The notes beneath the pieces are model-generated. The model made no database searches. It had not been told where the DNA came from and saw nothing but the letters and a program-made list of their open reading frames with translations. This document shows positions 4,233 to 36,841 of a stretch of 38,658 nucleotides of DNA, piece by piece. The DNA lies in the UHGV virus genome UHGV-0206453. One strand, given 5' to 3'. Source of the DNA: a virus. A program made the position numbers and the translations under genes. Positions within the stretch are counted from its first letter, which is position 1, and every line of letters starts with the position of its first letter.

Positions 4233-4234
4233 TT

Positions 4235-6828: not shown

Positions 6829-6853
6829 CACCCCAGCACACTAATGGAGAGAA

Positions 6854-7356: not shown

Positions 7357-7358
7357 CG

Positions 7359-7942: not shown

Positions 7943-7944
7943 CA

Positions 7945-8461: not shown

Positions 8462-8666
8462 TTACCTGAAATGGTATCTCTGCCACCGCTGGTTAATTAA
8501 GTTTGCTGTAAAAGACTGGATGACAGCGGATGCCAACAAGCTTAAACAACGAAAGGACTATTACTATGCCAGAATGAAGGAAAACTACTGCTCAATTCGC
8601 ACTCGCATATTTATTAAAAAAGACCTTCAGTCAATTCTTCAATTGCGAGGGAAGGTAAATGGCTAA
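8454..8666 (+). CDS. hypothetical protein (70 aa)
   Basis: ORF track; ATG overlaps ninF 3' end. Confidence 0.45.
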   Translation: MSDYLKWYLCHRWLIKFAVKDWMTADANKLKQRKDYYYARMKENYCSIRTRIFIKKDLQSILQLRGKVNG

Positions 8667-8949
8667 CCTACGCAAAGAAGCGCGCGGCAGAGAATGCCAG
8701 GTACGTATTTACGGTGTATGCAATGGCAATCCTGAAACTACAGTTCTGGCACATTACCGGATGGCTGGAATTTGCGGAACGGGAATGAAACCTGACGACC
8801 TGATCGGCGCATGGGCTTGTAGCGCGTGTCACGATGAAATCGACCGACGCACCCATAATCTCGACAACAAAGACGCCAGACTTTACCACCTCGAAGGCGT
8901 GATCAGGACGCAGGCGATACTGCTGAAGGAGGGGAAGATTAAGTCATGA
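8659..8949 (+). CDS. YbcO-like DUF1364 putative nuclease
   Basis: 96 aa; MANLRKEARGRECQVRIYGVCNGNPETTVLAHYR...ACSACHDEIDRRTH resembles E. coli DLP12 YbcO. Confidence 0.7.
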   Translation: MANLRKEARGRECQVRIYGVCNGNPETTVLAHYRMAGICGTGMKPDDLIGAWACSACHDEIDRRTHNLDNKDARLYHLEGVIRTQAILLKEGKIKS

Positions 8950-9308
8950 ACGAATATCAGTTTGTGCTTCCTTACCCGCCGTCGGTGAATACCTACTGGC
9001 GAAGACGGGGAAGCCAATACTACATCAGCGATAAAGGCCAGAAATACCGAAAAGACGTTCAGCAAATCATCCGCCAACTCAAGTTAGATATTTTCACCAA
9101 ATCACGACTCCGTATCAAAGTCATCGCAGACGTTCCAGACTCCCGCCGCCGCGACCTCGACAACATCCTGAAAGGTTTACTCGACTCCCTTATCCACGCC
9201 GGATTTGCGGAAGACGACGAGCAATTCGATGACATTCGCGTAATTCGTGGTGTGAAAGTACCAGGCGGACGGCTTGGAATAAAAATCACCGAACTGGAGG
9301 ACGTATGA
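8946..9308 (+). CDS. rusA: RusA Holliday-junction resolvase
   Basis: 120 aa; PYPPSVNTYWRRRG...DSRRRDLDNILKGLLDSL motifs typical of RusA. Confidence 0.9.
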   Translation: MNEYQFVLPYPPSVNTYWRRRGSQYYISDKGQKYRKDVQQIIRQLKLDIFTKSRLRIKVIADVPDSRRRDLDNILKGLLDSLIHAGFAEDDEQFDDIRVIRGVKVPGGRLGIKITELEDV

Positions 9309-9493
9309 ACGCCACAATTCAAACGATACCAGAGCTTCTTATCCAGACACGAGGCAATCAGACCGAAGTGGCGAGGATGCTTTCCTGCGCAAGAGGAACA
9401 GTGCTCAAGTACAACCGAGACAGCAAAGGTGAGCGTCACGTAATAGTTAACGGCGTCCTGATGGTCAAACAGGGCAAGAGGGGAAGACCATGA
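9305..9493 (+). CDS. ninH: NinH-like protein
   Basis: 62 aa; ...TIPELLIQTRGNQTEVARMLSCARGTVLKY... resembles lambda NinH. Confidence 0.7.
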   Translation: MNATIQTIPELLIQTRGNQTEVARMLSCARGTVLKYNRDSKGERHVIVNGVLMVKQGKRGRP

Positions 9494-10113
9494 GACTCGA
9501 AAGCGTAGCTAAATTTCACTCGCCAAAAAGCCCGATGATGAGCGACTCACCACGGGCTACGGCTTCTGACTCTCTTTCCGGTACTGATGTGATGGCTGCT
9601 ATGGGGATGGCGCAATCACAAGCCGGATTCGGAATGGCTGCATTCTGTGGTAAGCATGAACTCATCCAGAACGACAAACAAAAGGCTATCAACTATCTGA
9701 TGCAATTTGCACACAAGGTATCGGGGAAATACCGTGGTGTGGCAAAGCTCGAAGGAAATACTAAGGCAAAGGTACTGCAAGTGCTCGCAACATTCGCTTA
9801 TGCGGATTATTGCCGTAGTGCCGCGACGCCTGGCGCAAGATGCAGAGATTGTCACGGTACAGGCCGTGCGGTTGATATAGCAAAAACAGAGCAGTGGGGG
9901 AGAGTTGTTGAGAAAGAATGCGGAAGATGCAAAGGTGTCGGCTATTCAAGGATGCCAGCAAGCGCCGCATATCGCGCTGTGACGATGCTAATCCCAAACC
10001 TTACTCAACCCACCTGGTCACGCACTGTTAAGCCGCTGTATGACGCTCTGGTGGTGCAATGCCACAAAGAAGAGTCAATCGCAGACAACATTTTGAATGC
10101 GGTCACACGTTAG
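9490..10113 (+). CDS. Q: late antiterminator Q (lambda type)
   Basis: 207 aa; near-identical to lambda Q as remembered (MRLESVAKFHSPKSPMMSDSPRATASD...). Confidence 0.95.
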   Translation: MRLESVAKFHSPKSPMMSDSPRATASDSLSGTDVMAAMGMAQSQAGFGMAAFCGKHELIQNDKQKAINYLMQFAHKVSGKYRGVAKLEGNTKAKVLQVLATFAYADYCRSAATPGARCRDCHGTGRAVDIAKTEQWGRVVEKECGRCKGVGYSRMPASAAYRAVTMLIPNLTQPTWSRTVKPLYDALVVQCHKEESIADNILNAVTR

Positions 10114-10155
10114 CGGCATGATTGCCACGGATGGCAACATCTTTACGGCATGATA

Positions 10156-10193
10156 TTGACTTTTTGAATAAAGTTGGGTAAATTTGACCCAAG
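10156..10193 (+). promoter_or_regulatory. late promoter pR' with Q-utilisation region
   Basis: -35 TTGACT, 18-bp spacer, -10 TAAATT, identical to lambda pR' core; homology to lambda breaks a few bases after the start site. Confidence 0.75.
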
Positions 10194-10384
10194 AATGGCA
10201 GATTTATATCCGTTCACATTCTTTCATCTTTTACCCACCTCATCTTTAAGTTCTAAGCGCACTGACATGCGCATCATAAACTCGAGAGCACATAGGAATA
10301 GAGCCTGAGAAATATCGCTTTTGGCGACTTCTCTCGTGGTGATATTTCTATGTCAGCAGGCTCTAATATCTATGTGGTTCGCCT

Positions 10385-10876
10385 ATGTTAAAACGTGAAG
10401 ATGCATTGAGACTTTTTAATTACAATCCAGATACTGGAATTCTTACATGGAAGAATCCACCTCGGTCCTCTAGATTTATCTATGGCGCTGTTGTTGGCTA
10501 TAAAACAAATGGATATCTGCAGGTAAAACTTTATGGAATGCGGCTATATGTCCATAGAATTGCATGGCTGATGGTTTACAATGATTGGCCAACCGATGTG
10601 ATTGACCATATTAATGGTGATAGGTCTGATAACCGGATAGCCAATCTTCGTGTTGTTACTAACACTCAAAACTCATGGAACAGCAAGATGAGGAAAAATA
10701 ATTCATCTGGTGTGAAGGGGGTGACTTTTAATTCTGCTGCAAACAAGTGGGTTGGAAGAATTAGGGTCAATGGTAAAAGGATTCATGTAGGGTGTTTTGA
10801 CGATATCGAGGAGGCTAGAAAGGCAATGGAAAATGCCAGGATAAAATATCATGGTGAATTCTCCAGTATGGGATAG
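10385..10876 (+). CDS. HNH endonuclease with C-terminal AP2-type DNA-binding domain
   Basis: 163 aa; HNH core HRIAWLMVYNDWPTDVIDHINGDRSDNRIANL; AP2-like SGVKGVTFNSAANKWVGRIRVNGKRIHVGCFDDIEEA. Confidence 0.85.
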   Translation: MLKREDALRLFNYNPDTGILTWKNPPRSSRFIYGAVVGYKTNGYLQVKLYGMRLYVHRIAWLMVYNDWPTDVIDHINGDRSDNRIANLRVVTNTQNSWNSKMRKNNSSGVKGVTFNSAANKWVGRIRVNGKRIHVGCFDDIEEARKAMENARIKYHGEFSSMG

Positions 10877-11009
10877 ATGGGTTAATTCGCTCGTTGTGGT
10901 AGTGAGATAAAAAGAGGCGGCGCTTACTACCGATTCCGCCTAGTTGGTCACTTCGACGTATCGTCTGGAACTCCAACCATCGCAGGCTGAGAGGTCTGTA
11001 AAATGCAAT

Positions 11010-11067
11010 CCCGAAACAGTTCGCAGGTAATAGTTAGAGCCTGCATAACGGTTTCGGGATTTTTTAT
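11010..11067 (+). terminator. tR' (6S RNA) terminator
   Basis: CCCGAAAC...GTTTCGGG hairpin followed by ATTTTTTAT, same sequence as lambda tR'. Confidence 0.8.
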
Positions 11068-11472
11068 ATCTGCACAGCAGGTAAGAGCATTGAGTCGATA
11101 ATCGTGAAGAGTCGGCGAGCCTGGTTAGCCAGTGCTCTTTCCGTTGTGCTGAATTAAGCGAATACCGGAAGCAGAACCGGATCACCAAATGCGTACAGGC
11201 GTCATCGCCGCCCAGCAACAGCACAACCCAAACTGAGCCGTAGCCACTGGCTATCCTGAATTCATCAGTGATAGTTACGCTGCGGACTTCTACACATGAC
11301 CTCGTGAAAGCGGGTGGCATGAGGTTGCGCTAACAACCTCCTGCCGTTTTGCCCGTGCATATCGGTCACGAACAAATCTGATTACTAAACACAGTAGCCT
11401 GGATTTGTTCTATCAGTAATCGACCATATTCCTAATTAAATAGAGCAAATCCCCTCAATGAAGGGGTAGAGC

Positions 11473-11676
11473 ATGTACCGTATGGACAAAATCAGAGAAT
11501 GGTTCAGTTACAGCTTCGGAGGACTGACTGCGATGGGTGGCATTCTCTCCCTGAATGACTGGGCTGTCATCATTGGTATTCTTTGTACTGTCGGCACATT
11601 TGGCATCAACTGGTACTACAAGCGCAAAGAGCGCGAGGACAGATTGAATGGCAATGTCACCGGCACTACGAAATAG
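11473..11676 (+). CDS. class II holin with dual-start motif
   Basis: 67 aa; MYRMDK dual Met start, two predicted TM segments, charged C-terminus; immediately precedes endolysin. Confidence 0.7.
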
Positions 11677-11918
11677 CGTAATAGCGGCGATAAGTGGCGG
11701 GGCTATTGCTATAGCATCAGTGTTAATCACTGGCCCAAGTGGTAACGATGGTCTGGAAGGTGTCAGCTACATACCATACAAAGATATTGTTGGTGTATGG
11801 ACTGTATGTCACGGGCATACAGGAAAATAGACTGGCCCCCTGAATCTCCAGACAACCAATATCACTTATTTAAGTGATAGTCTTAATACTAGTTTTTAGA
11901 CTAGTCATTGGAGAGCAG

Positions 11919-12284
11919 ATGATTGATGTCTTAGGACCGGAGAAACGCAGACGGCGTACTACACAGGAAAAGATCGCTATTGTTCAGCAGAGTTTTGAAC
12001 CGGGAATGACAGTCTCCCTTGTTGCCCGGCAACACGGTGTGGCAGCCAGCCAGTTATTTCTCTGGCGCAAGCAATACCAGGAGGGAAGTCTTACTGCTGT
12101 GGCCGCAGGAGAACAGGTCGTTCCTGCCTCTGAACTTGCTGCCGCCATGAAGCAGATTAAAGAACTCCAGCGCCTGCTCGGCAAAAAAACGATGGAAAAT
12201 GAACTCCTTAAAGAAGCCGTTGAATATGGGCGTGCAAAAAAGTGGATAGCGCACGCGCCCTTATTGCCCGGGGATGGGGAGTAA
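11919..12284 (+). CDS. insC: IS2 transposase OrfA (InsC)
   Basis: [53 protein letters not shown]... matches IS2 InsC. Confidence 0.9.
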
Positions 12285-13147
12285 GCTTAGTCAGCCGTTG
12301 TCTCCGGGTGTCGCGTGCGCAGTTGCACGTCATTCTCAGACGAACCGATGACTGGAAAGATGGTCGCCGCAGCCGTCACTCAGATGATACGGATGTGCTT
12401 CTCCGTATACACCATGTTATCGGAGAGCTGCCCACATATGGTTATCGTCGGGTATGGGCGCTGCTTCGCAGACAGGCCGAACTTGATGGTATGCCTGCGA
12501 TCAATGCCAAACGTATTTACCGGATCATGCGCCAGAATGCGCTGTTGCTTGAGCGAAAACCCGCTGTACCGCCATCGAAACGGGCACATACCGGCAGAGT
12601 GGCTGTGAAAGAAAGTAATCAGCGATGGTGCTCTGACGGGTTCGAGTTCCGCTGTGATAACGGAGAAAAACTGCGAGTCACGTTCGCGCTGGACTGCTGT
12701 GACCGTGAGGCACTGCACTGGGCGGTCACTACGGGCGGCTTCAACAGTGAAACAGTACAGGACGTCATGCTGGGAGCGGTGGAACGCCGTTTCGGCAACG
12801 AGCTTCCGGCGTCTCCAGTAGAGTGGCTGACGGATAATGGTTCATGCTACCGGGCTAATGAAACACGGCAGTTTGCCCGGATGTTGGGGCTTGAACCGAA
12901 GAACACGGCGGTGCGGAGTCCGGAGAGTAACGGCATAGCAGAGAGCTTCGTGAAAACGATAAAGCGTGACTACATCAGTGTCATGCCCAAACCAGACGGG
13001 TTAACGGCAGCAAAGAACCTTGCAGAGGCATTCGAGCATTATAACGAATGGCATCCGCATAGTGCACTGGGTTATCGCTCGCCACGGGAATATCTACGGC
13101 AGCAAGCCAGTAATGGGTTAAGTGATAACAGGTGTCTGGAAATATAG
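12242..13147 (+). CDS. insD: IS2 transposase OrfB (InsD), expressed as InsCD via -1 frameshift
   Basis: 301-aa ORF overlapping insC in -1 frame; DDE integrase-type sequence matching IS2 InsD. Confidence 0.9.
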
Positions 13148-24535: not shown

Positions 24536-25228
24536 ATGTTATATGCATTTAAACTGGGCAGAAAACTGCGCGGCGAGGAACCTTATTGCCCTGAAAAGGG
24601 TGGGAAAGGTGGCAGTTCTGATAAAAGCGCAAAGTATGCCGCAGAAGCTCAGAAGTATGCAGCAGACCTGCAAAATCAGCAGTGGCAGACGATCATGAAA
24701 AACCTTGCTCCGTTCACGCCTCTTGCGGAGCAGTATGTTAACCAGTTGCAGAATCTTTCCAGTTTAGAAGGTCAGGGGCAGGCACTTAATCAGTATTACA
24801 ACTCTCAGCAGTATAAAGACCTTGCAGGTCAGGCGCGTTACCAGAGTCTTGCTGCTGCGGAGGCGACGGGTGGACTTGGTTCGACAGCCACAAGTAATCA
24901 ACTGGCTACGATCGCGCCGACACTCGGTCAGTCTTGGTTATCAAACCAGATGAGCAATTACAACAATCTGGCAAACGTTGGGCTTGGTGCGCTGCAAGGT
25001 CAGGCAAACGCCGGGCAGACGTACGCCAACAACATGAGCAGCATTGCACAGCAAAGCGCAGCACTTGCCGCTGCTAATGCCAATAAACCATCAAGTCTTC
25101 AGACTGCAATTAGCGGTGGCACGTCTGGTGCGATTGCCGGTGCAGGTCTTGCCAGCCTTTTGGGAACATCAACGCCTTGGGGCGCTGGCATTGGTGCTGG
25201 TATCGGATTGCTTGACTCGTTGTTTTAA
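24536..25228 (+). CDS. ejection protein (P22 gp7-like)
   Basis: 230 aa, Q/N/A-rich low-complexity protein in gp7 position. Confidence 0.7.
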   Translation: MLYAFKLGRKLRGEEPYCPEKGGKGGSSDKSAKYAAEAQKYAADLQNQQWQTIMKNLAPFTPLAEQYVNQLQNLSSLEGQGQALNQYYNSQQYKDLAGQARYQSLAAAEATGGLGSTATSNQLATIAPTLGQSWLSNQMSNYNNLANVGLGALQGQANAGQTYANNMSSIAQQSAALAAANANKPSSLQTAISGGTSGAIAGAGLASLLGTSTPWGAGIGAGIGLLDSLF

Positions 25229-25237
25229 GGGGTAATC

Positions 25238-26533
25238 ATGGCTACTTGGCAAAGAACAAACGGCGGATTGTTGGCTGGTATCGGCGGCGTCAACTCAAAC
25301 GCTCCGAGCGTAAATGACATCGGCAATACGCTTCAGCTTATCAGGCAGAACAATGATATTGAGCGTTCAGGCGCTAACAATGTTGGGCTGACTGCTTTGC
25401 AAGGCCTTTCAGGTATTGCGGTGGTGTTTCAGCAGGAAAAGCAGGCTCAGCGGCAGAAAGAATTTCAGCAGGCATACGCTAATGCTTATGCGTCTGGTGA
25501 TCGCGGTGCTTTGCGTCAGTTGGCTACTCAATATCCAGAACAGATTGAATCCGTTCGTAAAGGCATGGGATTCATTGATGAAGATCAGCGTAATTCTATC
25601 GGCACCTTAGCGGCTGGCGCACGCCTTGCGTCATCGTCTCCAGAAGCAATGCAATCATGGCTGCAAAACAACGCCAAGGAACTGGCGCGCGTCGGTGTTG
25701 ACCCTAACAACGTTGCTCAGATGTATCAGCAGAATCCTTCAGGATTTGGTGAGTTTGTTGATCACCTTGGAATGGCTGCTCTTGGCCCGATTGACTACTT
25801 CAATGTTCAGGACAAGATGGCTGGTCGTGAAATTGACCGAGGCAGGCTGGCAGAGACAATCCGCAGCAATCAGGCTGGAGAAGCACTAACAGCTCGTGGT
25901 CAGGACATCCAGATACGTGGACAGAACATCAGCGCACAGAATGCTGCTCTTTCCCGCGAAATACAAAGAGCAGAATTACAAGAAAAGGCTCTGGACAGAC
26001 AGATAGCCAGAGAAAGCAATCAGTTAAAGCTTGAAGAGCTAAAACAGAAACAGGCAGATGTTCGGCAAAAGGCTGACATAGCCCGCGCTGACAGGCAGGC
26101 CGCCGCTCAGGGTGCAGTTGATACGTTCAGCACCGCGCTTGATTCTCTCAACGAGATAGAGCAAAGCCCCGGCCTTTCAAAAGCAGTAGGAATTCGCTCA
26201 GCGTTTCCGACAGTTCCTGGCTCTGATGCGGCTAACTTTGAAGCAAGGCTCGACACCTTTAAAGCTCAAACATTCCTTCCTATGGTGCAGTCTCTGAAGG
26301 GTATGGGCGCTCTTTCAGATGCTGAGGGTAAAAAATTATCCGATGCGGTTGGTGCCCTAAGCCCCAAAATGAGTGAAAAGGCTTTTCGTGACTCTATCGG
26401 AAAGATTAGAAATCAGCTTGAAAGCAAGTTGAGCACTGTTAAAAAACAGTTTGATTATCAGGAGCCGGTGCAGAATATGCCAGGGCAACAATCTACTACT
26501 GGCAGTAACTTTTCTTCACTATGGGGTGATTAA
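25238..26533 (+). CDS. ejection protein (P22 gp20-like)
   Basis: 431 aa, position and composition. Confidence 0.7.
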   Translation: MATWQRTNGGLLAGIGGVNSNAPSVNDIGNTLQLIRQNNDIERSGANNVGLTALQGLSGIAVVFQQEKQAQRQKEFQQAYANAYASGDRGALRQLATQYPEQIESVRKGMGFIDEDQRNSIGTLAAGARLASSSPEAMQSWLQNNAKELARVGVDPNNVAQMYQQNPSGFGEFVDHLGMAALGPIDYFNVQDKMAGREIDRGRLAETIRSNQAGEALTARGQDIQIRGQNISAQNAALSREIQRAELQEKALDRQIARESNQLKLEELKQKQADVRQKADIARADRQAAAQGAVDTFSTALDSLNEIEQSPGLSKAVGIRSAFPTVPGSDAANFEARLDTFKAQTFLPMVQSLKGMGALSDAEGKKLSDAVGALSPKMSEKAFRDSIGKIRNQLESKLSTVKKQFDYQEPVQNMPGQQSTTGSNFSSLWGD

Positions 26534-28530
26534 TGGCTAAAGCATGGAAAGATGTTATCGCCTCTCCACAGTATCAGGCGTTAGCACCAGAACAAAAAGC
26601 GCAGGCTCAGGAGCAATACTTCAATGAAGTCGTGGCCCCGCAAGCCGGAGAAAATGCAGAGCAGGCTAAGCAAGCTTTCTATGCTGCCTATCCATTGCCA
26701 TCTGTGCAGCCAGTGGAGACACAACAACCAGAAGCACAGCAACAACCACAGCAAAGTGGATTTATGTCTGATCTTGGTGAAGCCGTGAAAGAAACTGGTC
26801 GCGGACTGGTGCAGGCTGGCGTGAACGTGGCAAACATACCTGCATCAGTTGCCGATGCTGTAACAAGCGCGGCGGCATGGGCTGGCGGTAAACTCGGTAT
26901 TGGCGATGGTACATATCAACCAGCGCCACGAGTAACAACGCAGGGATTAGAGCAGGACTTTGGCCTTCAGCAAGGTGCGCTGACTCCACAAACGACAGAG
27001 GGAAGGGTATTTGCTGAAGCATTGCCTTACCTCACTCCTGCTGGCGTTGAGAGAGCGGCGGTACAGGCACCAACACTTGCTGGTCGAATTACTCAGGGGG
27101 CAACTCGCCTTCTAGCAGAAAACGCAGTTGGATCACTTGCTGCAAATAGTGCGAAAGATGATGCGGAAGCACTCGCCACCGATTTAGGCGTTGGTGTACT
27201 TGCTGGCGGTGCTATTAACGCTGCCGGACGTGGATTAGGTGCAGCTTATCGTGGCGTTCGTGGTGCTATCGCGCCAGAAGCGCAGCAGGCTATCAGATTT
27301 GCAGAGCGTGAAGGAGTTCCTCTGCACACCACAGACCTGTTACAACCGACTTCCCGCATCGGGAAAATGGCGCAAACGACAGCAGAAAATATCCCTCTGG
27401 CTGGAACAAGCGGAATGAGAGCAACGCAACAGGAAGCGAGAAGCCAGTTGGTTCAGAGATTTGCTGATAAATTCGGTGAGTATGATCCAGCGGTTGTTAT
27501 TGACAGCCTTAAAGCGAAAACATCAGGAATTCGTCGCGCCGCCGGCAATCGACTGGAGCAGGTTCAGAATGCTATGGCTGGAGTAAACATTCAGCCTGCG
27601 CGAGCAATTCAGCAGATTGATACAGAAATATCTAACCTGCAGAAGCTTGGTAAGGTTGCTGATAACGAGACTATTTCAAAACTTCAGTCATATCGTGATG
27701 AGCTTGTTCGCAATGCTGGCCCTGATGGTCCGGTAAATCTGGATTTGAAGCAATTAAGCGACCTGCGCAGCCAGTTCAGAATGGACGTGAAGGGTGAGCG
27801 ACCAGTGTTACCAAACCGTTCCGATGCCGCCATTCAGCGCGTTTACAAGGCAATGACTGACGATATCAATGGTGCCATTGGTCAGAATCTTGGCAACGAT
27901 ACTCTCCGTAAATATCAGCAGGCCAATGCCGTCTACGCTGACGAAGCGGCGAAACTAAAGAATACCAGGCTGAAGAATGTTCTCATGAAAGGCGACCTGA
28001 CGCCGGAAGTTGTCAACAACATGCTATTCAGCAAGAACAAATCGGAAATTAAGACGCTGTATAACTCAGTTGGTCGTGTTGGCAGGGCGCAAATGCGCAA
28101 TGGCATCATTGGAAAGGCGATGGAGAAATCAGGTGGTTCCCCTGACCAGTTCCTTCGACAGCTTAACATCCTGCAAGACCAGACTGGCATCACATTTAAA
28201 GGTCAGGATGCTGCTTATCTGAAAGGATTGAAAAACTACCTGCAATCCACGCAGCAGGCTGCAAAAGCGGCAGTAACAACACCAACAGGGCAGCAAACCA
28301 TCCCGTTCATTATCGGATATGGGACGGCAATGAACCCGGCGACAACTGGTGCAGCAGTAAGCTACGGACTTCTTACTCGCGCCTATGAGAGCGAACCATT
28401 CAGAAATGCAATGCTCCGAATGGCAAATACCCCACGCGGATCAACATCGTTTGAGAAAGCCATGCAGCAGGCGCAAAAGGCCATTAACGCCCTGACTCAG
28501 GGTGCCAAGTCTGATGCGTTGTCATGGTAA
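26533..28530 (+). CDS. ejection protein (P22 gp16-like)
   Basis: 665 aa, last gene before tailspike as in P22. Confidence 0.7.
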   Translation: MAKAWKDVIASPQYQALAPEQKAQAQEQYFNEVVAPQAGENAEQAKQAFYAAYPLPSVQPVETQQPEAQQQPQQSGFMSDLGEAVKETGRGLVQAGVNVANIPASVADAVTSAAAWAGGKLGIGDGTYQPAPRVTTQGLEQDFGLQQGALTPQTTEGRVFAEALPYLTPAGVERAAVQAPTLAGRITQGATRLLAENAVGSLAANSAKDDAEALATDLGVGVLAGGAINAAGRGLGAAYRGVRGAIAPEAQQAIRFAEREGVPLHTTDLLQPTSRIGKMAQTTAENIPLAGTSGMRATQQEARSQLVQRFADKFGEYDPAVVIDSLKAKTSGIRRAAGNRLEQVQNAMAGVNIQPARAIQQIDTEISNLQKLGKVADNETISKLQSYRDELVRNAGPDGPVNLDLKQLSDLRSQFRMDVKGERPVLPNRSDAAIQRVYKAMTDDINGAIGQNLGNDTLRKYQQANAVYADEAAKLKNTRLKNVLMKGDLTPEVVNNMLFSKNKSEIKTLYNSVGRVGRAQMRNGIIGKAMEKSGGSPDQFLRQLNILQDQTGITFKGQDAAYLKGLKNYLQSTQQAAKAAVTTPTGQQTIPFIIGYGTAMNPATTGAAVSYGLLTRAYESEPFRNAMLRMANTPRGSTSFEKAMQQAQKAINALTQGAKSDALSW

Positions 28531-28590
28531 TGTAGATGTAAATTACAGTTAAAAATTAAATTGCTATGGAGTTGATTGAGCTTTTTGCTT

Positions 28591-28618
28591 ACATTAATGC
28601 AAATTTCTGCATTAATGT
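28591..28618. promoter_or_regulatory. perfect palindrome ACATTAATGCA-N6-TGCATTAATGT upstream of tailspike
   Basis: 11-bp perfect inverted arms in the AT-rich gp16-tailspike intergenic region; operator-like. Confidence 0.35.
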
Positions 28619-28720
28619 GTGTTTAATATGAATAGAAGATCATTTTTCAAATCAATAGCGTCATTTGTAGCATTAACTCCATTATCTTCTTTATCAAACA
28701 TGTCTAATAGGATTGCACAC

Positions 28721-31099
28721 ATGACTAATATAACACCAAATGTGGTTATAGGAATGCCTTCGCAACTCTTCACTATGGCGCGTTCTTTTAAAGCCGTAGC
28801 CAATGGCAAAATTTATATCGGTAAAATTGATACTGACCCGGTAAATCCTGAAAACCAGATTCAGGTTTATGTAGAGAACGAAGACGGTTCTCACATTCCT
28901 GTTGCACAGCCAATCATCATTAACGCTGGCGGATATCCGGTATATAACGGACAGATTGCCAAATTCGTTACTGTACAGGGCCATTCTATGGCTGTTTATG
29001 ATGCGTATGGTGCACAGCAGTTTTATTTTCCGAATACGCTGAAGTACGATCCAGATCAATTTAGCTACCAACTTTCATCTGCAAATGGTGCATATCTTGT
29101 TGGTTATGCAACGTCAACTGTTGGTGATTCACTTGATGATATTAATAATGGAAAAATAGTTACCAGTTTTGTGTCAGATTTGAATGCTGATAATAGGGAT
29201 ATTATTTTCGGGCAAACAGGTAATGTATATATACCAAGTAATATAACAGTAAGATGCAACCTTCTTCCTGACGATGACGTAACAAAATTAACTGGAGAAG
29301 GAAAAATTCTCACCAGAGATCCATGGGGGAATGAGCACATATTTGATGTTGGATTGGCAACTCATGGCAGTAAATTTACATGCAGTGGTGTTATTAATCA
29401 ACATGCCAGATTGAATGAATTATGTAGAGTTGGAATTGTTGGAGACTCAATCACTGACGGCGCATACGGTGCTGGATGGTCAGCTAATCCAACCGATTCT
29501 AATGGTGACCTATCTTCAACTAACTACGATCACAATAGTAATGGTGGTTCAGGTTCTTGGTTTCGCACATTTACCGACTGGCTTAACCGATTTACTAAAA
29601 ATAGTGCTTACATATTTAAGGCTGAAAACTGCGCATCTTCTGGAAAGCGACTCATTGACGGGTGGGCTAATCGTAACTTCGATCATGGATTTTTCAAAAA
29701 TACAGCATACGGAAATACCGCACCGGATGTGTGTTTTCTTTCAATGGGCGTAAATGATAATGGGCAGATTGATAGCATTGGATTTGATCAGTATCTATAT
29801 CGTTTCGAGCAATTTATTCGCAAAGCTTGGGGTTATGGATGCGCTGTCTGTGTCGTCTCAATGAACCAAAATGGATCACAATGGGGAGCCCTTGAAGCAT
29901 CAATTAAGAAGAGCATTGAAAGATTGATGCCTGCTGTAGAGTTTCTTGACCTATCACAGGCGGTTACAGATATGTACAGAGATGTTGGCAGTCACACTCT
30001 TCAGGAAATAGCTCGTAGACCTACAGATGGGACTTTTGATGCCACGCATTTTGCGCCTCTTGGACACCAATATATTGGTGCTTATGCCGCAAAGGAATTT
30101 ATGCCTTATCGAGTTCATATTGCGAAGAATGGTAACAACTTCGTACCGAATGTTGATAATGATATACAGGCTATCGGTTACCCTTCAGGCGCTATTTACA
30201 GCGTTAGCATGGAGAGATTGAGCGGTAACACATATCTTAATGGAATAACAGGGTGGGGAACGATAAAACCATCATCTGAAAATGTTACTATCCGTTACTT
30301 TATCTGGTGCGATACATCAGATTTATCAATGGTTATTTTCGAGCCTTATAACCCTTCCTATGTTACTGATGGCCGAGCCAACTCATTTTCAGTTATAGAG
30401 CAAGACATTCGTAATGGCGTATATATATCTGGCAACATTGCAAGCAACGGGATTGCGTCATTTACAAACAAGTTGACAACGAGAACAACAACCCTCAAAA
30501 AAGGATTGAATCAGATAGAAGTTATTTATGATGGTTCCCCATCAAAAGTATATCCACCAGGGCTGTTGTTTAGAGGAGATTTGAAAGAGTCATGCTCGCA
30601 AAATGCTTCAGTGTATCTTGCTGAAAATGCAATAAAAGGAGTATATGGGCAGGTAAGGGATAGAGCTGATTTGTTATTGTCGTATGCGGCAGAAACTGCT
30701 AATGATGAATCTCCTGATATGTATGGTGCAACTAAATCACCAAATGTTCAAAATGTTGCTTTATCATCAATTCCTGTTGGCTGCGGAGTGGTTTTTTACT
30801 ATAAACCTTCTTCACAAAGCGGAGTTGTTGCAAAGAGAACTTCAACTGGAATTGAGATTTCAACAATGCTTTTCGGCGAACTAACAGTTGTTGGAACTTT
30901 AACATGTGATGTTACAGGGGAAGTAATGCTCACAGCTAGTTTGAATGGCTTAACTCCCACAATAACAGTTAAGCCAACTACTGGTGCAACTGTTACTAAT
31001 CCTGTTCCCGGTTTCTCTGGTGGAAAAATAGCTCTAATAAACAAAGGAGCAAGTGGAAAAACATTATCTGTGAAATATTCTTCACACTATATTATTTAA
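28721..31099 (+). CDS. tailspike: P22-type head-binding N-domain fused to SGNH/GDSL esterase-type receptor domain
   Basis: Internal ATG of ORF 28619..31099; N-terminus [38 protein letters not shown] matches P22 gp9 head-binding domain; SGNH blocks [21 protein letters not shown]. Confidence 0.85.
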
Positions 31100-31162
31100 A
31101 CAAATACACACAAAGCTTGCACTGAATTGCAAGGCTTTGTGCTATTCGATAGTTAAGGTGGA

Positions 31163-32320
31163 TCACTCCACCTTTTCATCAAGCCAATCCGCCCACCATT
31201 GCATCATTTCTCTGCGCTTATCGAGATACTGAGCATGGTTGTAAATTCCACGTACAGATCCGCCGTTGGCATGTGCCAGTTGCACTTCAATGGCGTCGGC
31301 AGGCCATTCGTGCTCGTTCATAATCGTGCTGAATTCATGCCTGAATCCGTGACCGCTTTCCAGACCCTCATAGCCGATTTGTTTGATCACAAGCAGTACC
31401 GCGTTCTCGCAGATTGGCTTCTTCTTATCGTTGCGCCCGGCAAAAACAAACTCTGATACAGGCTTGGTGATTGAGCTTAGCGTAGTGAGAAGTTCAACTA
31501 CCTGGTCTGACATAGGAACCACATGAATTTTGCGTCCCTTCATCACACTGGCGTCAATGGTGATAATCCTGTTTTCAAAATCGACGTTCTTCCATAGCAT
31601 GGAACGAAGCTCTTTTGTTCTTAGGGCTGTGTAGCGCAAAACTTTAGTCGCAATGAGCGATACGATGCTTCCTGAAAATGTTGCCAGTGCTTTGTTGAAT
31701 GCAGGGATCTGGTCTGCAGGAAGAAACGGGAAGTTCTTCTTGCGGTATCCTTTCATGGCGTCTGCAAGGTCAGGTGCCGGGTTATATTTAGCCCTTCCGG
31801 TGACAATAGCGTAACGGAAAACCTCTCCGCATCTTCTGCGGGCTTTGTTGGCTCGCTCCATTGCACCGCGATCTTCAAATCTGCGGATTACTTCCAGCAG
31901 TTGCATCGGCTCAATATCCTGAATTTCAAGGCCGCCGATGATAGGTAAAATGTCGTCATCAAACATTTTTGCAAGTTCAGTCGCATACCCTACTGACCAT
32001 ACTTGCTTCTTGTGCTCGTACCATTCCTTGTAAATCGCACTAAAGGAATTGTTGTTAGACGAAGCCTTTTTCGCCTTTACCGGATCGATGCCAACCGAGA
32101 TGTCTTTCCTCGCAGTCCATGCTTTATCCCTTGCCTCTTGCAAAGTCATAAGCGGATATTTTCCGACGGTCAGGATTTTCTCCTTACCGTCAATCTTGTA
32201 GCGAAGCTGCCATACCTTTTTCCCGGATACAGGGACATAAAGGTACAGGCCATTACCATCGAGAAGGCGGTATGGTTTTTCTTTCGGCTTTGCTGCTTCA
32301 ATCTGCTTAACGGTGAGCAT
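31163..32320 (-). CDS. int: tyrosine integrase, P4-like family (N-terminal arm-binding domain)
   Basis: ATG at 32320 within ORF 31163..32356 (alternative GTG at 32356); LTVKQIEAAKP N-terminus; catalytic motifs HGFRH, LAHANGGSVRGIYNH. Confidence 0.9.
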   Translation of the reverse strand: MLTVKQIEAAKPKEKPYRLLDGNGLYLYVPVSGKKVWQLRYKIDGKEKILTVGKYPLMTLQEARDKAWTARKDISVGIDPVKAKKASSNNNSFSAIYKEWYEHKKQVWSVGYATELAKMFDDDILPIIGGLEIQDIEPMQLLEVIRRFEDRGAMERANKARRRCGEVFRYAIVTGRAKYNPAPDLADAMKGYRKKNFPFLPADQIPAFNKALATFSGSIVSLIATKVLRYTALRTKELRSMLWKNVDFENRIITIDASVMKGRKIHVVPMSDQVVELLTTLSSITKPVSEFVFAGRNDKKKPICENAVLLVIKQIGYEGLESGHGFRHEFSTIMNEHEWPADAIEVQLAHANGGSVRGIYNHAQYLDKRREMMQWWADWLDEKVE

Positions 32321-32575
32321 GGGTAAAAATCCGGTGGGTAAAATTATTTTATCCACTTTTTACCCGTCACGGAGTGCGGCTGTCAACGATCTGACGCGAA
32401 CCATTACGAACTGTGAATCTACGGAAGGCTTGATATTCAGGGGATTTTGCGGACTGGTACGGATGGGAGCGAACTGATAAATGGTGTCCCCTGCAGACAT
32501 CTACTTGAAGCAGCAGGGGATTGATTGGAATGGTGTTTTTTAGATGTGAGAAATATTTTACCCGCTATTTTACCC
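32321..32575. other. candidate attP: tRNA-Arg-like 3'-end core flanked by repeated TTTTACCC arm-type motifs
   Basis: Plus TGGTGTCCCCTGCAG (about 32482-32496) is the reverse complement of a tRNA 3' acceptor end plus CCA; five TTTTACCC/GGGTAAAA motifs in both orientations. Confidence 0.55.
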
Positions 32576-32770
32576 ATTGGCGCGGCTTAAGAGCTTATTT
32601 TTGAATTCACAATGGTCACGATATAACCATCTTGCTCGCCCGTGGATAACTTTGGCTTTAGGCAGGTCGCCGGACTTAATCCGGTCATAAATGAAGGTTT
32701 TACCGAAGCCAGTATCGGCCATGATGAATTTCAAATCAACCAGTGAATCAGGCTGTAGTTCGTGTTGCAT
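32570..32770 (-). CDS. AlpA-family excisionase/regulator
   Basis: 66 aa; FIMADTGFGKTFIYDRIKSGDLPKAKVIHGRARW typical AlpA/Xis HTH; GGAGA RBS. Confidence 0.75.
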   Translation of the reverse strand: MQHELQPDSLVDLKFIMADTGFGKTFIYDRIKSGDLPKAKVIHGRARWLYRDHCEFKNKLLSRANG

Positions 32771-32802
32771 GAGTGCTATCTCCGAATAGGGAATCGAACC
32801 TG

Positions 32803-32826
32803 CAAATCAGGCAATAAAAAACCGCC
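32803..32826 (-). terminator. rho-independent terminator upstream of alpA-like gene
   Basis: Minus-strand CCGCC-tgat-GGCGG hairpin followed by TTTTTTAT. Confidence 0.5.
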
Positions 32827-32878
32827 ATCAGGCGGCTTGGTGTTCTTTCAGTTCTTCAATTCGAATATTGGTTACGTC

Positions 32879-33178
32879 TTATTCGATGCGCACTCCTGGT
32901 ATTTCGCCTTTTGATATTGCTAAGTCATAAATTTGCGCGGCACTATACCCATCTCTCATCCATGAATCTAAGGCGCTAACAGCCTCGCTACGCTTTTTAT
33001 CTTCTCTCTCATTTTTGATATCAACGAGGACATCAACGCAATTAAGGCAAATGTGGATTTTGTCCTTACATTCGATCATGGCGGCTTTTCCATGATTTCC
33101 GCCACACAGTGAGCATAAATCTTCAGGGTCTGGCTGGTATTTCTGTAACGTTAGAGGGTTGAATGTTGAACAGACCAT
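32879..33178 (-). CDS. hypothetical Cys-rich protein (about 99 aa)
   Basis: Internal ATG of ORF 32879..33190 with GGAG RBS; CxxC...HxC...CxxC pattern suggests zinc binding. Confidence 0.5.
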   Translation of the reverse strand: MVCSTFNPLTLQKYQPDPEDLCSLCGGNHGKAAMIECKDKIHICLNCVDVLVDIKNEREDKKRSEAVSALDSWMRDGYSAAQIYDLAISKGEIPGVRIE

Positions 33179-33190
33179 AATCATCTCCAT

Positions 33191-33214
33191 AAAACAAAAC
33201 TCGCCGTAGCGAGT
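33191..33214 (-). terminator. rho-independent terminator
   Basis: Minus-strand ACTCGC-tacg-GCGAGT hairpin followed by TTTTGTTTT. Confidence 0.45.
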
Positions 33215-33364
33215 TCAGATAAAAGAAATCCCCGTCAGTGCGAGGATTGTTAGTTGCGCTCTGCTGCTGCCTTAGCCATTACCATATCCACCAAACTTCA
33301 CCAGACATGATTCTCGCAATCACTATCATCACCAAAGTGATAATCACAACTTTAACTGGCGGCA

Positions 33365-34147
33365 TCATTCACCATCCTGCTGCGGTGCTGCTGGATATGC
33401 TTTTCTCATCCAATGCGTGGCGTCATGAATAACGAACTGATATTCATCATCAGTAAACATCGAGCCATCCCACTGTAGCCCGTCAAGAACGCCTCTGGAT
33501 GGAGAGAATACCCAGATATCGAAATCGTATTTCTCCGGCATTCGCTCACTACAGCTTATCCAACCATCTGGAATTACCGGAGAGTTGCCACCCTGAACAG
33601 TAGGTATATCCGGACCTTTGCGAATCGCCCTGGCAAGATCGATTTGGTCGTCGTACAACCAGTCACCTGTTTGCGGATGATTGGCTTCTGCCAATTGTGC
33701 AGCCCACTCCAGGCCGTCTTTGTGTCCTTGCAGATAGTCCAGCGGTAACTCATCACTATTACTTACAGGTTCGGCCTGAAGCATGGCGGCGCGATATGCG
33801 TTCCAGCCAACAGCTTTTCCGTGTTCAAACGCGCTGTCAAAGTCATCATCAATTTCCATCGCAGCGGGCACAGATACCGGCGCTGGCGGGGCGGTGTAAA
33901 GCGGCGTTACTTCTCGCAGCGGGTCGGCATAAGCATTGCCACTATCGAAGCTGACGTTGTTTTTTGCGCCGCCGCCTGACAGCAGCCACGCCACCGGCTC
34001 CTGCTCCATGCCAGCCGTCAGCGCTTCCAGTGCGATTTTGAAGATTTGCGCATCGAGTTGCGCTTCTTCAAAATCAGGGTAATGGGTTGTTACCGCAAGA
34101 CGGCGCTCAAGCTTCTCAATCAACTGCTCTTTGGTGAAGGTGCTCAT
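33365..34147 (-). CDS. hypothetical protein with C-terminal DUF551-like domain
   Basis: 260 aa; C-terminus SCSERMPEKYDFDIWVF...ATHWM parallels the DUF551-like ORF at 14358; GAGGA RBS. Confidence 0.6.
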   Translation of the reverse strand: MSTFTKEQLIEKLERRLAVTTHYPDFEEAQLDAQIFKIALEALTAGMEQEPVAWLLSGGGAKNNVSFDSGNAYADPLREVTPLYTAPPAPVSVPAAMEIDDDFDSAFEHGKAVGWNAYRAAMLQAEPVSNSDELPLDYLQGHKDGLEWAAQLAEANHPQTGDWLYDDQIDLARAIRKGPDIPTVQGGNSPVIPDGWISCSERMPEKYDFDIWVFSPSRGVLDGLQWDGSMFTDDEYQFVIHDATHWMRKAYPAAPQQDGE

Positions 34148-34150
34148 GGG

Positions 34151-34585
34151 TTAGTCCTCACCTTTCTGTTGCACTACCGGAACCGATAAATCGACGCACC
34201 AGGAGATAACGCCGAATTGATCATCGTTCTGCGCTTCACCCCAAACGTAATATTTTGATCCTGGCCGACCCATTGCCGGGTCAAATACTTCTATGCCGCG
34301 TTCTGCCGTTAACGACATCAGAATCTGATGCAGGCCGCCTTTGATGTTCAGTGACGGAACGGTCAGGAAGTAAATAAACCCGTAAAGCAATTCGGCCTTG
34401 CGCTGGCTTCCGTAAAAATACGGGATTTTGTAATAATCCAGCGCGTCGTCGAGCCAGTCTGTTTTGTCGTGGAATTTCTGATGCCAGCGTTCCACTACCT
34501 CATCGACAGGTTGACCGGCAACCATTGCAACGCAGGTAGCCATGCAGGTGTTAAATGTTGGCTGCATTTGATGTTGAAGCATCAC
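34151..34585 (-). CDS. hypothetical protein (144 aa)
   Basis: ORF track; start overlaps upstream stop. Confidence 0.5.
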   Translation of the reverse strand: MMLQHQMQPTFNTCMATCVAMVAGQPVDEVVERWHQKFHDKTDWLDDALDYYKIPYFYGSQRKAELLYGFIYFLTVPSLNIKGGLHQILMSLTAERGIEVFDPAMGRPGSKYYVWGEAQNDDQFGVISWCVDLSVPVVQQKGED

Positions 34586-35166
34586 TCCCCCTTACCGATG
34601 CCAGCGGCGCGGTCTATGCGTTCGATTTCAGCCAGAATTAAAGCCCCTGCTTTTACCAGGTTGCGACGGCGGGCATTTGGCTTCCACCATGAAGCATCCC
34701 AAGGCCACCCCCACGGCTTGCCACCATTGCGGTTAACAGTTCCTGTTTCGTTTATGTAACAAACCGCCGCCATTGCCAGTTCCCCGTTGCAGTGTTCGTC
34801 ATCATGCTCTGGCATCCACCCCTCAACCGATTGTTGCCGCTGGCGCTCTGCTATCACATCCAGAATTGCAGGATTGAATGCACGCGCTTCCAGTTCTGCA
34901 ATGCGCTTCTCTGCTGCTTCAAGCGCAACGCGCAGCCTCCCAACCGTAAGCGCAATATCCTCGTTCTCCTTGTCGCGGCGTTTGATGTATTGCTGGTTTC
35001 TTTCCCGTTCATCCAGCAGCGCCTGGGTTGAAAGCTGCGATATAACGAGGTTGTTCTCTGCGTTGTTCTGTCCATCAAAGCCGGTCCATTTGATAACGTC
35101 TTCACATCGTTTATCACCGGGCGTATGCACCGCATACGTACCAGTAACCCGTCGAAATAAATGCAA
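34582..35166 (-). CDS. hypothetical coiled-coil protein; N-terminus possibly frameshifted
   Basis: ORF begins with TTG; a 38-codon ORF in another frame with AAGGAG RBS and ATGA-coupled ATG lies just upstream. Confidence 0.45.
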   Translation of the reverse strand: MHLFRRVTGTYAVHTPGDKRCEDVIKWTGFDGQNNAENNLVISQLSTQALLDERERNQQYIKRRDKENEDIALTVGRLRVALEAAEKRIAELEARAFNPAILDVIAERQRQQSVEGWMPEHDDEHCNGELAMAAVCYINETGTVNRNGGKPWGWPWDASWWKPNARRRNLVKAGALILAEIERIDRAAGIGKGE

Positions 35167-35226
35167 CCCATTCTCCTTGTGTTGCCTGTTTTGCTAACTC
35201 ACGCAGTGCCTGATAGTCAATCTTGC

Positions 35227-35808
35227 TCATTGGATGACTCCTTTACGAAGCTGTTCGGCGATATCTTCGAGAACGCCATCAGAGAATGAGCGATCAAAAT
35301 CGCCTTCCGGCGCATTAGCCATAAACTCAGTAGAGGTAAGAATCATCCGGGCAATATCAGCGGCGTTCTTCGCAGTATCATCAATAAAACCAGCTTCCCA
35401 GGCAGCCAGCATTCTGTTCGCCACAAAGTAAGCGCCCTCCTTGCGTGCTTCAGTCTTCACTTCAGCCAAGAAAGCGTCGGTGACTTGGGTTTGCGGCATC
35501 CTTCCGTCTATTGCGCAGATATACGCATCAGATAGTTCACCCTGCTCGCCGTCAAACACGTAGCAACTCTGTACGATAAATTTATTCAGCCACGCATTCT
35601 CCACAGCCAGCGCCGCGCACTTGGCCTCAAGGTTATCAATCGTGATTCCAGCAGAACGACACTCCCGCAACGCCGTTTCCAGTTTTGATTCAAGTTCACC
35701 GAACTTACTCACCAGATATTCAGCGTTTGTTTCGTTAACCTTTAAATCTCGTGGGATGCATTTACCTTTCAGAAAACCATCCATCTCAATTAGTGACATT
35801 TGTTTCAT
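35227..35808 (-). CDS. hypothetical protein (about 193 aa)
   Basis: ATG at 35808 overlapping upstream TGA (ATGA coupling) within ORF 35227..35826. Confidence 0.55.
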
Positions 35809-35969
35809 TTCTTCCCACTCCGCCACATCGCATTCAGATATTTGTTGTCATTAACAGAACCGAAACTATTTCTTTTAAGCAATTCCTCTCTCGATGGCAT
35901 TGGCTTTACGCGTTGGCGAATAATCATTTCTGCCGGAAGAATGCCGGGATTGTATGCAAGTCCTCTCAT
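35805..35969 (-). CDS. hypothetical small protein (about 54 aa)
   Basis: Internal ATG of ORF 35805..36002 with GAGGA RBS 7 nt upstream. Confidence 0.4.
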
Positions 35970-35979
35970 GGTAAATTCC

Positions 35980-36276
35980 TCAGTCATTACTGATAGCGCC
36001 ATAGCGTGAGCGGTAATTACGCAGGCGCGTGTCGATATATTCAGGGAAGTGGGTATATGTGGCTTTGCGGAATGGTCGGATTGATGTTTCGTTTATTCGG
36101 TCTTTTTCCTGTTTTTCTGCGAGTTGTATATCGCGTCGGTACTTACGTTCTTCTTTTGTTTCTGGTGGCAGAGCAAGAAACGCGCCGAGATTATTCTTGA
36201 TATTTTCCAGCACCTCCGATACGGAATTGCCGGAACAGCGGCGCGGGTCATCCGCACCATACAGAGGCGCTGGCAT
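35980..36276 (-). CDS. hypothetical protein (98 aa)
   Basis: ORF track; AGGAGA RBS. Confidence 0.5.
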
Positions 36277-36292
36277 ATTTTTCTCCTGTTGA

Positions 36293-36841
36293 TTATTTAG
36301 CTAATTTTTTCCAGATTGCTGAAACGTATTTGGCTTGGTGGATGGCATCATCAAGCGCGTTGTGGCGAGTTCCTTTGAATGGCATATCTCGCTTAGGGTC
36401 GAATCCTATTACCTTTCCAAGCTCGACGATTGTTCTTACGTCGCGGTCATTCCACCACTGCCACGGAACTGGCTGCCCTGTCAGCGAATAACTGTTGCGG
36501 AGAATAACGCAGTCAAATGATGCTCCATTCCCCCAAACCTGAACGAATTTGTGGTTAGCGTTCTTTATGATGAATTCAGATAACCATGAAAGAGCCGTTG
36601 AAAGCTCCTGAGTGTTGCTGGTTAGCGATTTTCTGGCTTCTTCACTCTGTTCCATCCACCATAAAATCGTTGAAGCGTCAGGACGCGCCCGATATCGCAT
36701 TGATGACTCAAGCGAGATATTTACCGAGAACTCTTCTCCTGTTTCTCCGGTATTCGGGTCAAAGAACACCGCCCCAATAGAAATAACAGGCGCGTATGGC
36801 CCGTTGCCCATTGTTTCAAGGTCAACCATTAAGTGATTCAT
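36293..36841 (-). CDS. DnaQ-like (DEDD) 3'-5' exonuclease
   Basis: 182 aa; MVDLETMG exo I motif, later H..ALDDA-type motif; AAGGA RBS. Confidence 0.7.
   Translation of the reverse strand: MNHLMVDLETMGNGPYAPVISIGAVFFDPNTGETGEEFSVNISLESSMRYRARPDASTILWWMEQSEEARKSLTSNTQELSTALSWLSEFIIKNANHKFVQVWGNGASFDCVILRNSYSLTGQPVPWQWWNDRDVRTIVELGKVIGFDPKRDMPFKGTRHNALDDAIHQAKYVSAIWKKLAK

Follow-up and report, generated by a model that had tools for sequence, protein, structure and literature searches.

A P22-like tailspike of a temperate Escherichia coli phage carries a predicted G7C gp63.1-type esterase module in place of a beta-helix glycosidase

We examined a 38,658-nucleotide (nt) stretch of viral DNA, the genome UHGV-0206453 (here called the window), and focused on its tailspike gene, which lies at positions 28721 to 31099 on the forward strand. 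The gene is a 2379-nt open reading frame (ORF) of 792 codons plus a stop and was delimited from the ORF listing, its translation, and PGAP-annotated homologues. It encodes a protein with two parts of different affinity, an N-terminal domain that matches the spikes of P22-like phages and a long receptor module that matches gp63.1, the tailspike of phage G7C. We favor, at a probability of roughly 0.7, the reading that this is a P22-like tailspike in which a gp63.1-type module has taken the place of the beta-helix glycosidase and which most likely deacetylates the O22 O-antigen of Escherichia coli.

An earlier reading of the sequence alone (the original prediction) had assigned the first ~110 residues to the head-binding domain of P22 gp9, and database searches bore this out. 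Amino acids (aa) 1 to 113 (positions 28721 to 29059, forward strand) match the full Pfam profile PF09008 of the P22-type head-binding (virion-attachment) domain with an E value of 3.3e-64, and phmmer aligned aa 1 to 119 with the head-binding structures of P22 gp9 (2vky, 1lkt, and 8tvr) and Sf6 gp14 (7sg7) at E values of 1e-48 to 4e-64. The domain is ~90% identical to that of Sf6 gp14. The DNA is 88 to 94% identical to that of other E. coli and Shigella P22-like phages only through approximately nt 340 of the gene, and the spikes of P22, Sf6, HK620, and related phages align with the window protein solely over the first ~120 residues. The likeness to P22-like spikes stops at aa 120 to 142, and the likeness to esterase spikes with other adaptors starts at aa 117 to 157 (aa 145 for the closest relatives). 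Because both similarity boundaries fall there, we place the exchange point in the linker of aa 114 to 146 (positions 29060 to 29158, forward strand), a very AT-rich segment in which the GC content at third codon positions (GC3) is 9%.

Beyond the linker, a phmmer search of the PDB matched aa 149 to 618 to residues 181 to 664 of the 4QNL chain (phage G7C tailspike gp63.1) with an E value of 8.3e-80, and four domains can be delimited, all on the forward strand. The first (aa 147 to 210; positions 29159 to 29350) corresponds to “domain 3” of G7C gp63.1; it matches Pfam PF21562 (Gp63_3rd_G7C; E = 4.9e-26), aligns to 4QNL, and was modeled with a predicted local distance difference test score (pLDDT) of ~90. 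It is followed by the predicted SGNH esterase catalytic domain (aa 211 to 470; positions 29351 to 30130), assigned from its motifs, the 4QNL alignment, and an alternation of strands and helices, with pLDDT values mostly of 83 to 96 and one dip to 74. The third domain is a galactose-binding-domain-like beta-sandwich (aa 471 to 618; positions 30131 to 30574), which matches Pfam PF21988 (G7C_GBD) over aa 484 to 617 (E = 1.3e-9) and aligns with 4QNL to residue 664. The last is an all-beta C-terminal domain (aa 619 to 792; positions 30575 to 31096) that is confidently modeled and is kept in Kagunavirus and Pectobacterium phage spikes to aa 784 to 792.

The AlphaFold model, built on a 30-sequence alignment, has pLDDT values mostly of 83 to 96 across aa 150 to 792, with dips to 74 to 76 in 10-residue blocks, and a predicted template modeling score (pTM) of 0.76. 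It contains alternating strands and helices over aa 235 to 460 at high pLDDT, in keeping with the three-layer alpha/beta/alpha fold and parallel central sheet of SGNH proteins, followed by two all-beta regions, and there is no beta-helix anywhere in its confident part. Foldseek returned 4QNL as the top PDB match (E = 5.3e-59, with template modeling scores of 0.73 for the query [TMq] and 0.69 for the target [TMt] over 815 columns) and also matched the GDSL protein 4rsh (TMt of 0.76). A search of the PDB by sequence with the C-terminal 189 aa gave only noise (E ≥ 0.4). The C-terminal domain must nevertheless take part in the fold match to 4QNL, since aa 149 to 618 by themselves would cap TMq at ~0.59; in the model, its relation to 4QNL is thus visible at the level of the fold only. 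The N-terminal domains by which gp63.1 attaches to the fiber gp66 have no counterpart here, as the 4QNL match begins at chain residue 181. Judged by sequence homology, the receptor module belongs to the gp63.1 family and the architecture of the whole protein does not. By homology, the spike is also expected to be a trimer.

The catalytic blocks of SGNH hydrolases occur in the expected order, as the original prediction had noted: an 11-residue block with GDS at aa 237 (S243), a glycine block (G308), GVNDNG at aa 343 (N345), and DATH at aa 440 (D440 and H443). The predicted catalytic codons lie on the forward strand at 29447 to 29449 (S243), 29642 to 29644 (G308), 29753 to 29755 (N345), 30038 to 30040 (D440), and 30047 to 30049 (H443). 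No substitution occurs at G241-D242-S243, G308, G343, N345-D346, D440, or H443 in an alignment of 30 homologues (30 to 77% identity to the query), so that the resemblance reflects homology and not chance, and S243, N345, D440, and H443 align to the GDS, GWND, and DTTH motifs of 4QNL. We assign the domain to the SGNH family because of the 4QNL homology, the conserved blocks, and the predicted fold taken together. The proposal that the protein would be a polysaccharide esterase instead of a beta-helix glycosidase, to be checked by structure prediction and comparison with known esterase tailspikes, is therefore supported by homology to gp63.1 in both sequence and predicted fold, and the model holds no beta-helix in which the motifs are buried.

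The receptor module is widespread and is found behind at least four virion adaptors (PF18668, PF12571, PF03906, and PF09008) in siphoviral, podoviral, and other phages and prophages. Its combination with the PF18668 adaptor is found very many times, in E. coli, Enterobacter, Citrobacter, Proteus, and Providencia; the PF12571 combination occurs in Vibrio and Providencia, and the PF03906 adaptor is of the T7 type. The PF09008 head-binding domain precedes the module in ~14 clusters, so the architecture is not unique to the window, and since PHROG 21878 matches aa 1 to 743, it is already represented in the PHROG library. An identical protein is encoded in a Logan/ENA assembly, and its 90% identity cluster has 97 members, the named ones all being E. 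coli “phage tailspike protein” entries. None of the deposited phages joins the head-binding domain to the esterase module, and our literature searches turned up no esterase spike described for a P22-like or Lederbergvirus phage. What is new is the combination of two well-known parts, and exchanges of modules of this type are amply documented; the sequences themselves are already in databases, uncharacterized and under a generic name. Related receptor parts are also carried by particles of other kinds: an E. coli prophage whose receptor part is 89% identical carries genes for T7-gp14-like internal virion proteins and represents, by our own reading, a different short-tailed type, and a siphovirus-type prophage of Enterobacter hormaechei has a receptor part that is ~80% identical.

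A further spike shares only the N-terminal side of the protein. Proteus phage Brookers (OL539469.1; extracted locus 3001 to 4878), an isolated Lederbergvirus, has a 625-aa spike that is 48.5% identical to the window protein over aa 1 to 246. It has the head-binding domain and the next ~130 residues, a stretch that spans domain 3, and then a different, unmatched C-terminal part; because the match ends at aa 246, we left it out of the esterase spikes. The Brookers spike suggests that in some lineages the swap junction may lie after domain 3.

To place the spike with respect to its host, we surveyed a sample of 5426 complete E. coli genomes. The head-binding part was matched in 1069 of these, whereas the full spike gene was present in just four, at 91.6 to 95.3% nucleotide identity, and when only the receptor part was used as the query, sensitive blastn recovered the identical four genomes and none further. 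In one of them, STK78-E, PGAP calls the wzy and wzx genes of the O-antigen cluster “O22 family,” and a gene for a 194-aa hexapeptide-repeat acyltransferase lies between them. DNA of the O22 wzy and acyltransferase genes was found in 10 genomes of the sample, one of them an O22:H8 strain, and all four spike lysogens are among these ten. With four independent lysogens, the hypergeometric probability of such an overlap is 5.8e-12; counting them as only two or three separate events gives 3e-6 to 6e-9. The four lysogen prophages have two downstream contexts and three distinct spike alleles, which differ by up to 8%; they therefore do not reflect a single clonal inheritance, and independence is supported. 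The E. coli prophage cluster that is 89% identical in the receptor part likewise includes prophages of E. coli O22:H16. Together with the presence of the module behind four adaptors, this strict association with O22 hosts supports the earlier suggestion that the receptor module was exchanged horizontally and sets the host range. Among the ten O22 genomes, that of strain 09A19CPO009 has wzy and a glycosyltransferase gene and no annotated acyltransferase in the corresponding region (NZ_CM148343.1, 1942720 to 1944507; a match of 100% coverage). This strain may represent a natural loss of O-acetylation, which would give resistance to phages with esterase spikes.

The nearest phage relatives and the solved homologue lead to the same glycan. 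The closest phage spikes are those of four Kagunavirus siphophages (Shashou, Sciku, Snoke, and Schulenburg), with 78.5 to 78.9% amino acid identity over aa 145 to 792, and three of the four, Shashou, Sciku, and Snoke, were obtained by plating on E. coli 4s (PMC6776780, PMC6753286, PMC6776784). The O-antigen of strain 4s is O22-like and acetylated by WclK, and gp63.1 strictly requires the acetyl group (PMC6393563, PMC4728585, PMC10743462); it has also been described as O22-type with an extra glucose (PMC4728585). gp63.1 is an esterase that removes the lateral O-acetyl group of this O-antigen and leaves the backbone intact; infection requires this activity, and mutants that are rough or that lack acetylation (wclK) resist the phage (PMC10743462, PMC6393563). 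The acetyl group is placed at O3 in a second-hand report. On cells treated with the G7C deacetylase, the O-antigen shield becomes weak enough for other phages to get through (PMC4728585). Because the lysogen serogroup, the strain on which the closest phages were isolated, and the known substrate of gp63.1 agree, we predict, partly by analogy, that the substrate is the O22-type O-antigen acetylated by the hexapeptide-repeat (WclK-type) acetyltransferase of the O22 cluster.

Several observations weigh against this interpretation. The four genomes behind the O22 association may be related to some degree. With only ~35% identity to gp63.1, homology alone does not allow the substrate to be carried over. 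The lysogens still carry the O-acetyltransferase gene and may thus remain adsorbable, which would be unusual for an O-antigen-specific temperate phage lacking a conversion module. Relatives with ~80% identity are abundant in prophages of Enterobacter hormaechei; the module therefore also serves on a glycan outside E. coli. Two further points concern the protein itself. AlphaFold modeled aa 1 to 138 poorly (pLDDT below 50), since the head-binding domain is present in few rows of the alignment, and the Pfam Lipase_GDSL_2 match over aa 240 to 450 scores 25.1 bits, under the curated cutoff of 32.9. The low score probably results from long insertions, such as that at aa 248 to 298; it weakens the certainty that Pfam by itself could give and leaves the 4QNL homology unaffected.

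The spike could also be an active esterase for another acetylated glycan, such as a K capsule, colanic acid, enterobacterial common antigen, or a glycan like the N4 receptor. SGNH receptor-binding proteins of Klebsiella prophages have been linked to capsule types (PMC13123978), colanic acid genes that include the acetyltransferase genes wcaB and wcaF are present in the lysogen, and Enterobacter, which lacks O22, has close homologues. We consider this unlikely, since colanic acid and enterobacterial common antigen are near universal in E. coli and would leave the restriction of the four carriers to the ten O22 genomes unexplained, as would the use of 4s as the isolation host of the nearest phage relatives, and since the characterized homologue acts on O-antigen. 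The low Lipase_GDSL_2 score and the two additional beta-sandwich domains, which could do the binding, might also be taken to mean that the SGNH domain is catalytically inactive and serves as a scaffold for carbohydrate binding, which would make the spike a lectin-like adhesin. The invariance of all five catalytic and oxyanion residues in the 30 homologues, down to 30% identity, and in alleles that differ by up to 8% makes this quite improbable. Since the SGNH/GDSL superfamily includes lipases and peptidoglycan O-acetyl esterases, and one JGI homologue has been automatically named “lysophospholipase L1-like esterase,” the domain could in principle act on the envelope as a lipase or as an esterase of lipid A or peptidoglycan O-acetyl groups; its specific homology to the gp63.1 tailspike family, including the flanking carbohydrate-binding domains, the position and adaptor of a receptor-binding spike, and a serogroup-specific distribution ill suited to a conserved lipid target leave very little room for such a role. 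A conventional P22-type beta-helix glycosidase with fortuitous SGNH-like motifs, for which only the head-binding domain and the genomic position speak, is refuted by the strong 4QNL sequence match, by the Foldseek result, by a model of helix/strand alternation and beta-sandwiches, and by the restriction of the P22 and Sf6 spike matches to the first ~119 residues.

P22 carries six spike trimers per virion, and the P22-type virion is the best-understood case of O-antigen-dependent infection: the spike cleaves O-antigen and thereby moves the virion to the membrane, and lipopolysaccharide (LPS) triggers DNA ejection. For a P22-like spike that deacetylates O22 O-antigen, we envisage the following course. 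The first ~113 residues would attach the spike to the tail hub in the manner of P22 and Sf6, and the beta-sandwich domains would hold the O22 chain. Ser243 would act as the nucleophile on the acetyl ester, with His443 and Asp440 as the base and Gly308 and Asn345 forming the oxyanion hole. The glycan backbone would stay uncut, and deacetylation would be the productive, receptor-modifying step, as it is for gp63.1. Successive deacetylation might move the virion down the O-antigen, or weaken or collapse the shield locally, after which the tail needle would reach the outer membrane. At release, the same enzyme would destroy receptors on debris and so help virions to escape. A bolder version, that a P22-type virion infects without any O-antigen cut, deacetylation alone moving it along or collapsing the shield, and that domain shuffling tunes the spike to O22 subvariants (glucosylated or not), is a speculation that we regard as possible but doubtful.

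The shuffling itself was seen in a comparison of five spike alleles, namely, those of the window (positions 30131 to 31096 for the variable region), STK78-E (locus 6001 to 8379), and STEC711, G3, and XYEH3934 (loci 4001 to 6379). The linker is identical in all five, the SGNH domain is 97.7 to 100% identical, and S243, G308, N345, D440, and H443 are retained throughout. Two variants of the galactose-binding-like domain (86 to 88% identical) and two variants of the C-terminal domain (~80% identical) occur in all four combinations among the five alleles. From these sequences, the pattern indicates recombination within the spike gene among phages of a common O22 host pool. The C-terminal variant covaries with what lies downstream. 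The STK78-E prophage adjoins the pao/ykg region and has no conversion genes after the spike gene, and the window likewise has no gtr genes and carries a distinct P4-type integrase gene directly after the spike gene (31100 to 32356); in the other three lysogens, gtrC-gtrB-gtrA (O-antigen glucosylation) and the gene for IntS follow the spike gene (extracted loci 6478 to 10328). The covariation of C-terminal variant and gtr genes could be due to physical linkage or to a functional link. In the siphoviral Enterobacter prophage whose spike is 80% identical, gtrCBA also lies right after the spike gene (extracted locus 10413 to 13131), with a GtrC that is only 24% identical. The targets of the primers used for the 4s gtrO22 knockout were not found at up to 8 mismatches in the gtr clusters beside homologous spikes, in a set of other extracted loci, or in the window.

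The original prediction had also described the part after the head-binding domain as AT-rich and had taken the shift in composition as a sign of acquisition. The gene is indeed ~10 GC points below its neighbors, at 39.7% GC versus 48.4 to 51.4% in the ten upstream structural genes and 47.7% in the whole window. The shift includes the head-binding domain, however, and its edge does not lie at the junction: the head-binding part itself has 41.6% GC, and the drop starts in the upstream intergenic region. Since this domain and the upstream gap are also AT-rich, the GC step marks the whole gene, and AT richness was ruled out as a marker of the domain junction. The comparison with adjacent structural genes gave 39.7 versus ~50% GC in the window, 41.5 versus 49.7% in the E. 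coli podoviral prophage, and 46.4 versus 55.9% in the Enterobacter prophage, whereas the Shashou spike module is only 1 to 3 points below its neighbors (46.9 to 47.7 versus 49.3%). The notion that AT richness is intrinsic to the module is thus partly supported, with a gap of 8 to 10 points in three prophage lineages and of 1 to 3 points in Shashou. The O22 gene cluster has 31% GC. The bias fits a mobile, often exchanged module and names no donor.

The surroundings of the gene are those of a P22-like phage. The first 25 kb of the window matches CUS-3 at 96% identity over 64% of its length, with other E. coli P22-like phages nearly as good, and the backbone also matches Kapi1. We therefore take the 38.7-kb window, by its sequence, as an essentially complete Lederbergvirus-type genome; the phage that bears the spike is a CUS-3/Sf6-like (P22-like, Lederbergvirus-type) temperate phage of E. 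coli. The spike gene is preceded by homologues of the P22 virion genes for portal, scaffold, coat, gp4, gp10, gp26, gp14, gp7, gp20, and gp16, and ORF order and Pfam labels place it at the end of the virion module, 3′ of the gp7, gp20, and gp16 ejection-protein genes. Its start codon is supported by a Shine-Dalgarno-like AGGA read from the sequence at 28709 to 28712 (forward strand), 8 nt upstream of the ATG, and by homologues of 91 to 95% identity that PGAP labels “phage tailspike protein” and that share the start position. A longer ORF that would start with GTG at 28619 is probably spurious, given the ribosome-binding site ahead of the ATG, and we rejected the GTG start because the PGAP homologues and all head-binding proteins begin with MTNIT. 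This in-frame upstream ORF, which opens at the 3′ edge of an inverted repeat, encodes a motif (NRRSFFK) resembling a twin-arginine translocation (Tat) signal, and its translation is improbable. The repeat (28590 to 28619; 12-bp stem, TACATTAATGCA...TGCATTAATGTG) was flagged as terminator-like and lies within the 190-nt gap before the spike gene (28531 to 28720), which is very AT-rich (~33% GC).

On the other side, a convergent tyrosine integrase gene lies 63 nt downstream of the spike gene, and a hairpin terminator can be read between the two at 31105 to 31143, with terminator-like matches on both strands at 31116 to 31133. The window (31100 to 31162) and the STK78-E prophage (extracted locus 8380 to 8480) are alike for ~45 nt through this hairpin and then differ. 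Because they diverge just after it, the crossover of the phage attachment site (attP) probably lies between the terminator and the integrase stop codon, which suggests that the window is the circular, nonintegrated form. ARAGORN found no tRNA or tRNA fragment in the window that would define attP. In STK78-E, a second small phage-like element adjoins the P22-like prophage (NZ_CP162185.1, 3704735 to 3716483; extracted locus 24736 to 36484) and carries genes for an integrase, a baseplate protein, a major capsid protein, and a recombinase.

Esterase spikes raise the question of how a short-tailed phage crosses a thick O-antigen layer that it does not cut, the “cut or pull” debate (PMC10743462). 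G7C, the only well-studied case, has a branched adhesin on an N4-like particle and is hard to dissect. A P22-like phage would offer a single spike type, solved tail structures, in vitro assays of LPS-triggered ejection, and a predicted, defined substrate, and as strain 4s and its wclK, gtr, and rough mutants exist, infection without O-antigen cleavage would be directly testable in a P22-type model. The association also yields a host range prediction at the level of the serogroup, O22, which includes Shiga toxin-producing strains such as O22:H8, and adds a further example of prophage spikes that can be typed to O serogroups. The protein is, in addition, a candidate reagent for O22 detection or for weakening of the O-antigen shield.

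Compared with known systems, the window spike stands between two groups. It shares with P22 gp9, Sf6 gp14, HK620 gp9, and the CUS-3 spike a head-binding domain that is 66 to 90% identical and the placement of its gene 3′ of those for the ejection proteins; in those spikes, beta-helix domains with endoglycosidase or endosialidase function cut the glycan, whereas the window spike should leave the backbone whole. It shares with G7C gp63.1 the module order (domain 3, SGNH esterase, galactose-binding-like domain, and C-terminal beta domain), the conserved catalytic residues, and probably the host glycan, an acetylated O-antigen of the O22 type. In contrast, gp63.1 is attached through its N-terminal domains to the fiber gp66 in a branched adhesin, while the P22 head-binding domain would join the window spike directly to the tail hub, and G7C is a virulent, N4-like podovirus, whereas the window phage is temperate and P22-like. 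Hf4s, which infects E. coli 4s, is likewise a temperate, P22-like podovirus related to Lederbergvirus, and, as we predict for the window phage, it makes use of the O22-like O-antigen and is sensitive to acetylation of that glycan; unlike the window phage, with its predicted esterase spike and lack of gtr genes, it has a gtr conversion cluster and a spike that is reported to be glycosidase-like and related to that of phage Peacock. The uncharacterized spikes of the Kagunavirus 4s siphophages have the whole receptor module in common with the window protein and differ in carrying a PF18668-type N-terminal adaptor on a siphovirus tail tip. The Shashou spike (MK931440.1; extracted locus 4575 to 6947) is annotated as “tailspike endosialidase,” which, on sequence grounds, is likely wrong, because the part equivalent to aa 145 to 792 shares 79% identity with the window protein and represents an esterase module of the G7C type. 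The SGNH spikes of Pectobacterium phages (PP99; Q19, PP47, and PP81; Possum; and the CB1/Nepra type) again place a G7C-like esterase module on lineage-specific adaptors; they are 33% identical over aa 117 to 784, have T7-, SP6-, or N4-like adaptors, and serve on different hosts and glycans. SGNH receptor-binding proteins are also common in Klebsiella prophages (PMC13123978), and for the Pectobacterium and Klebsiella prophage proteins alike, deacetylation without depolymerization has been shown or proposed.

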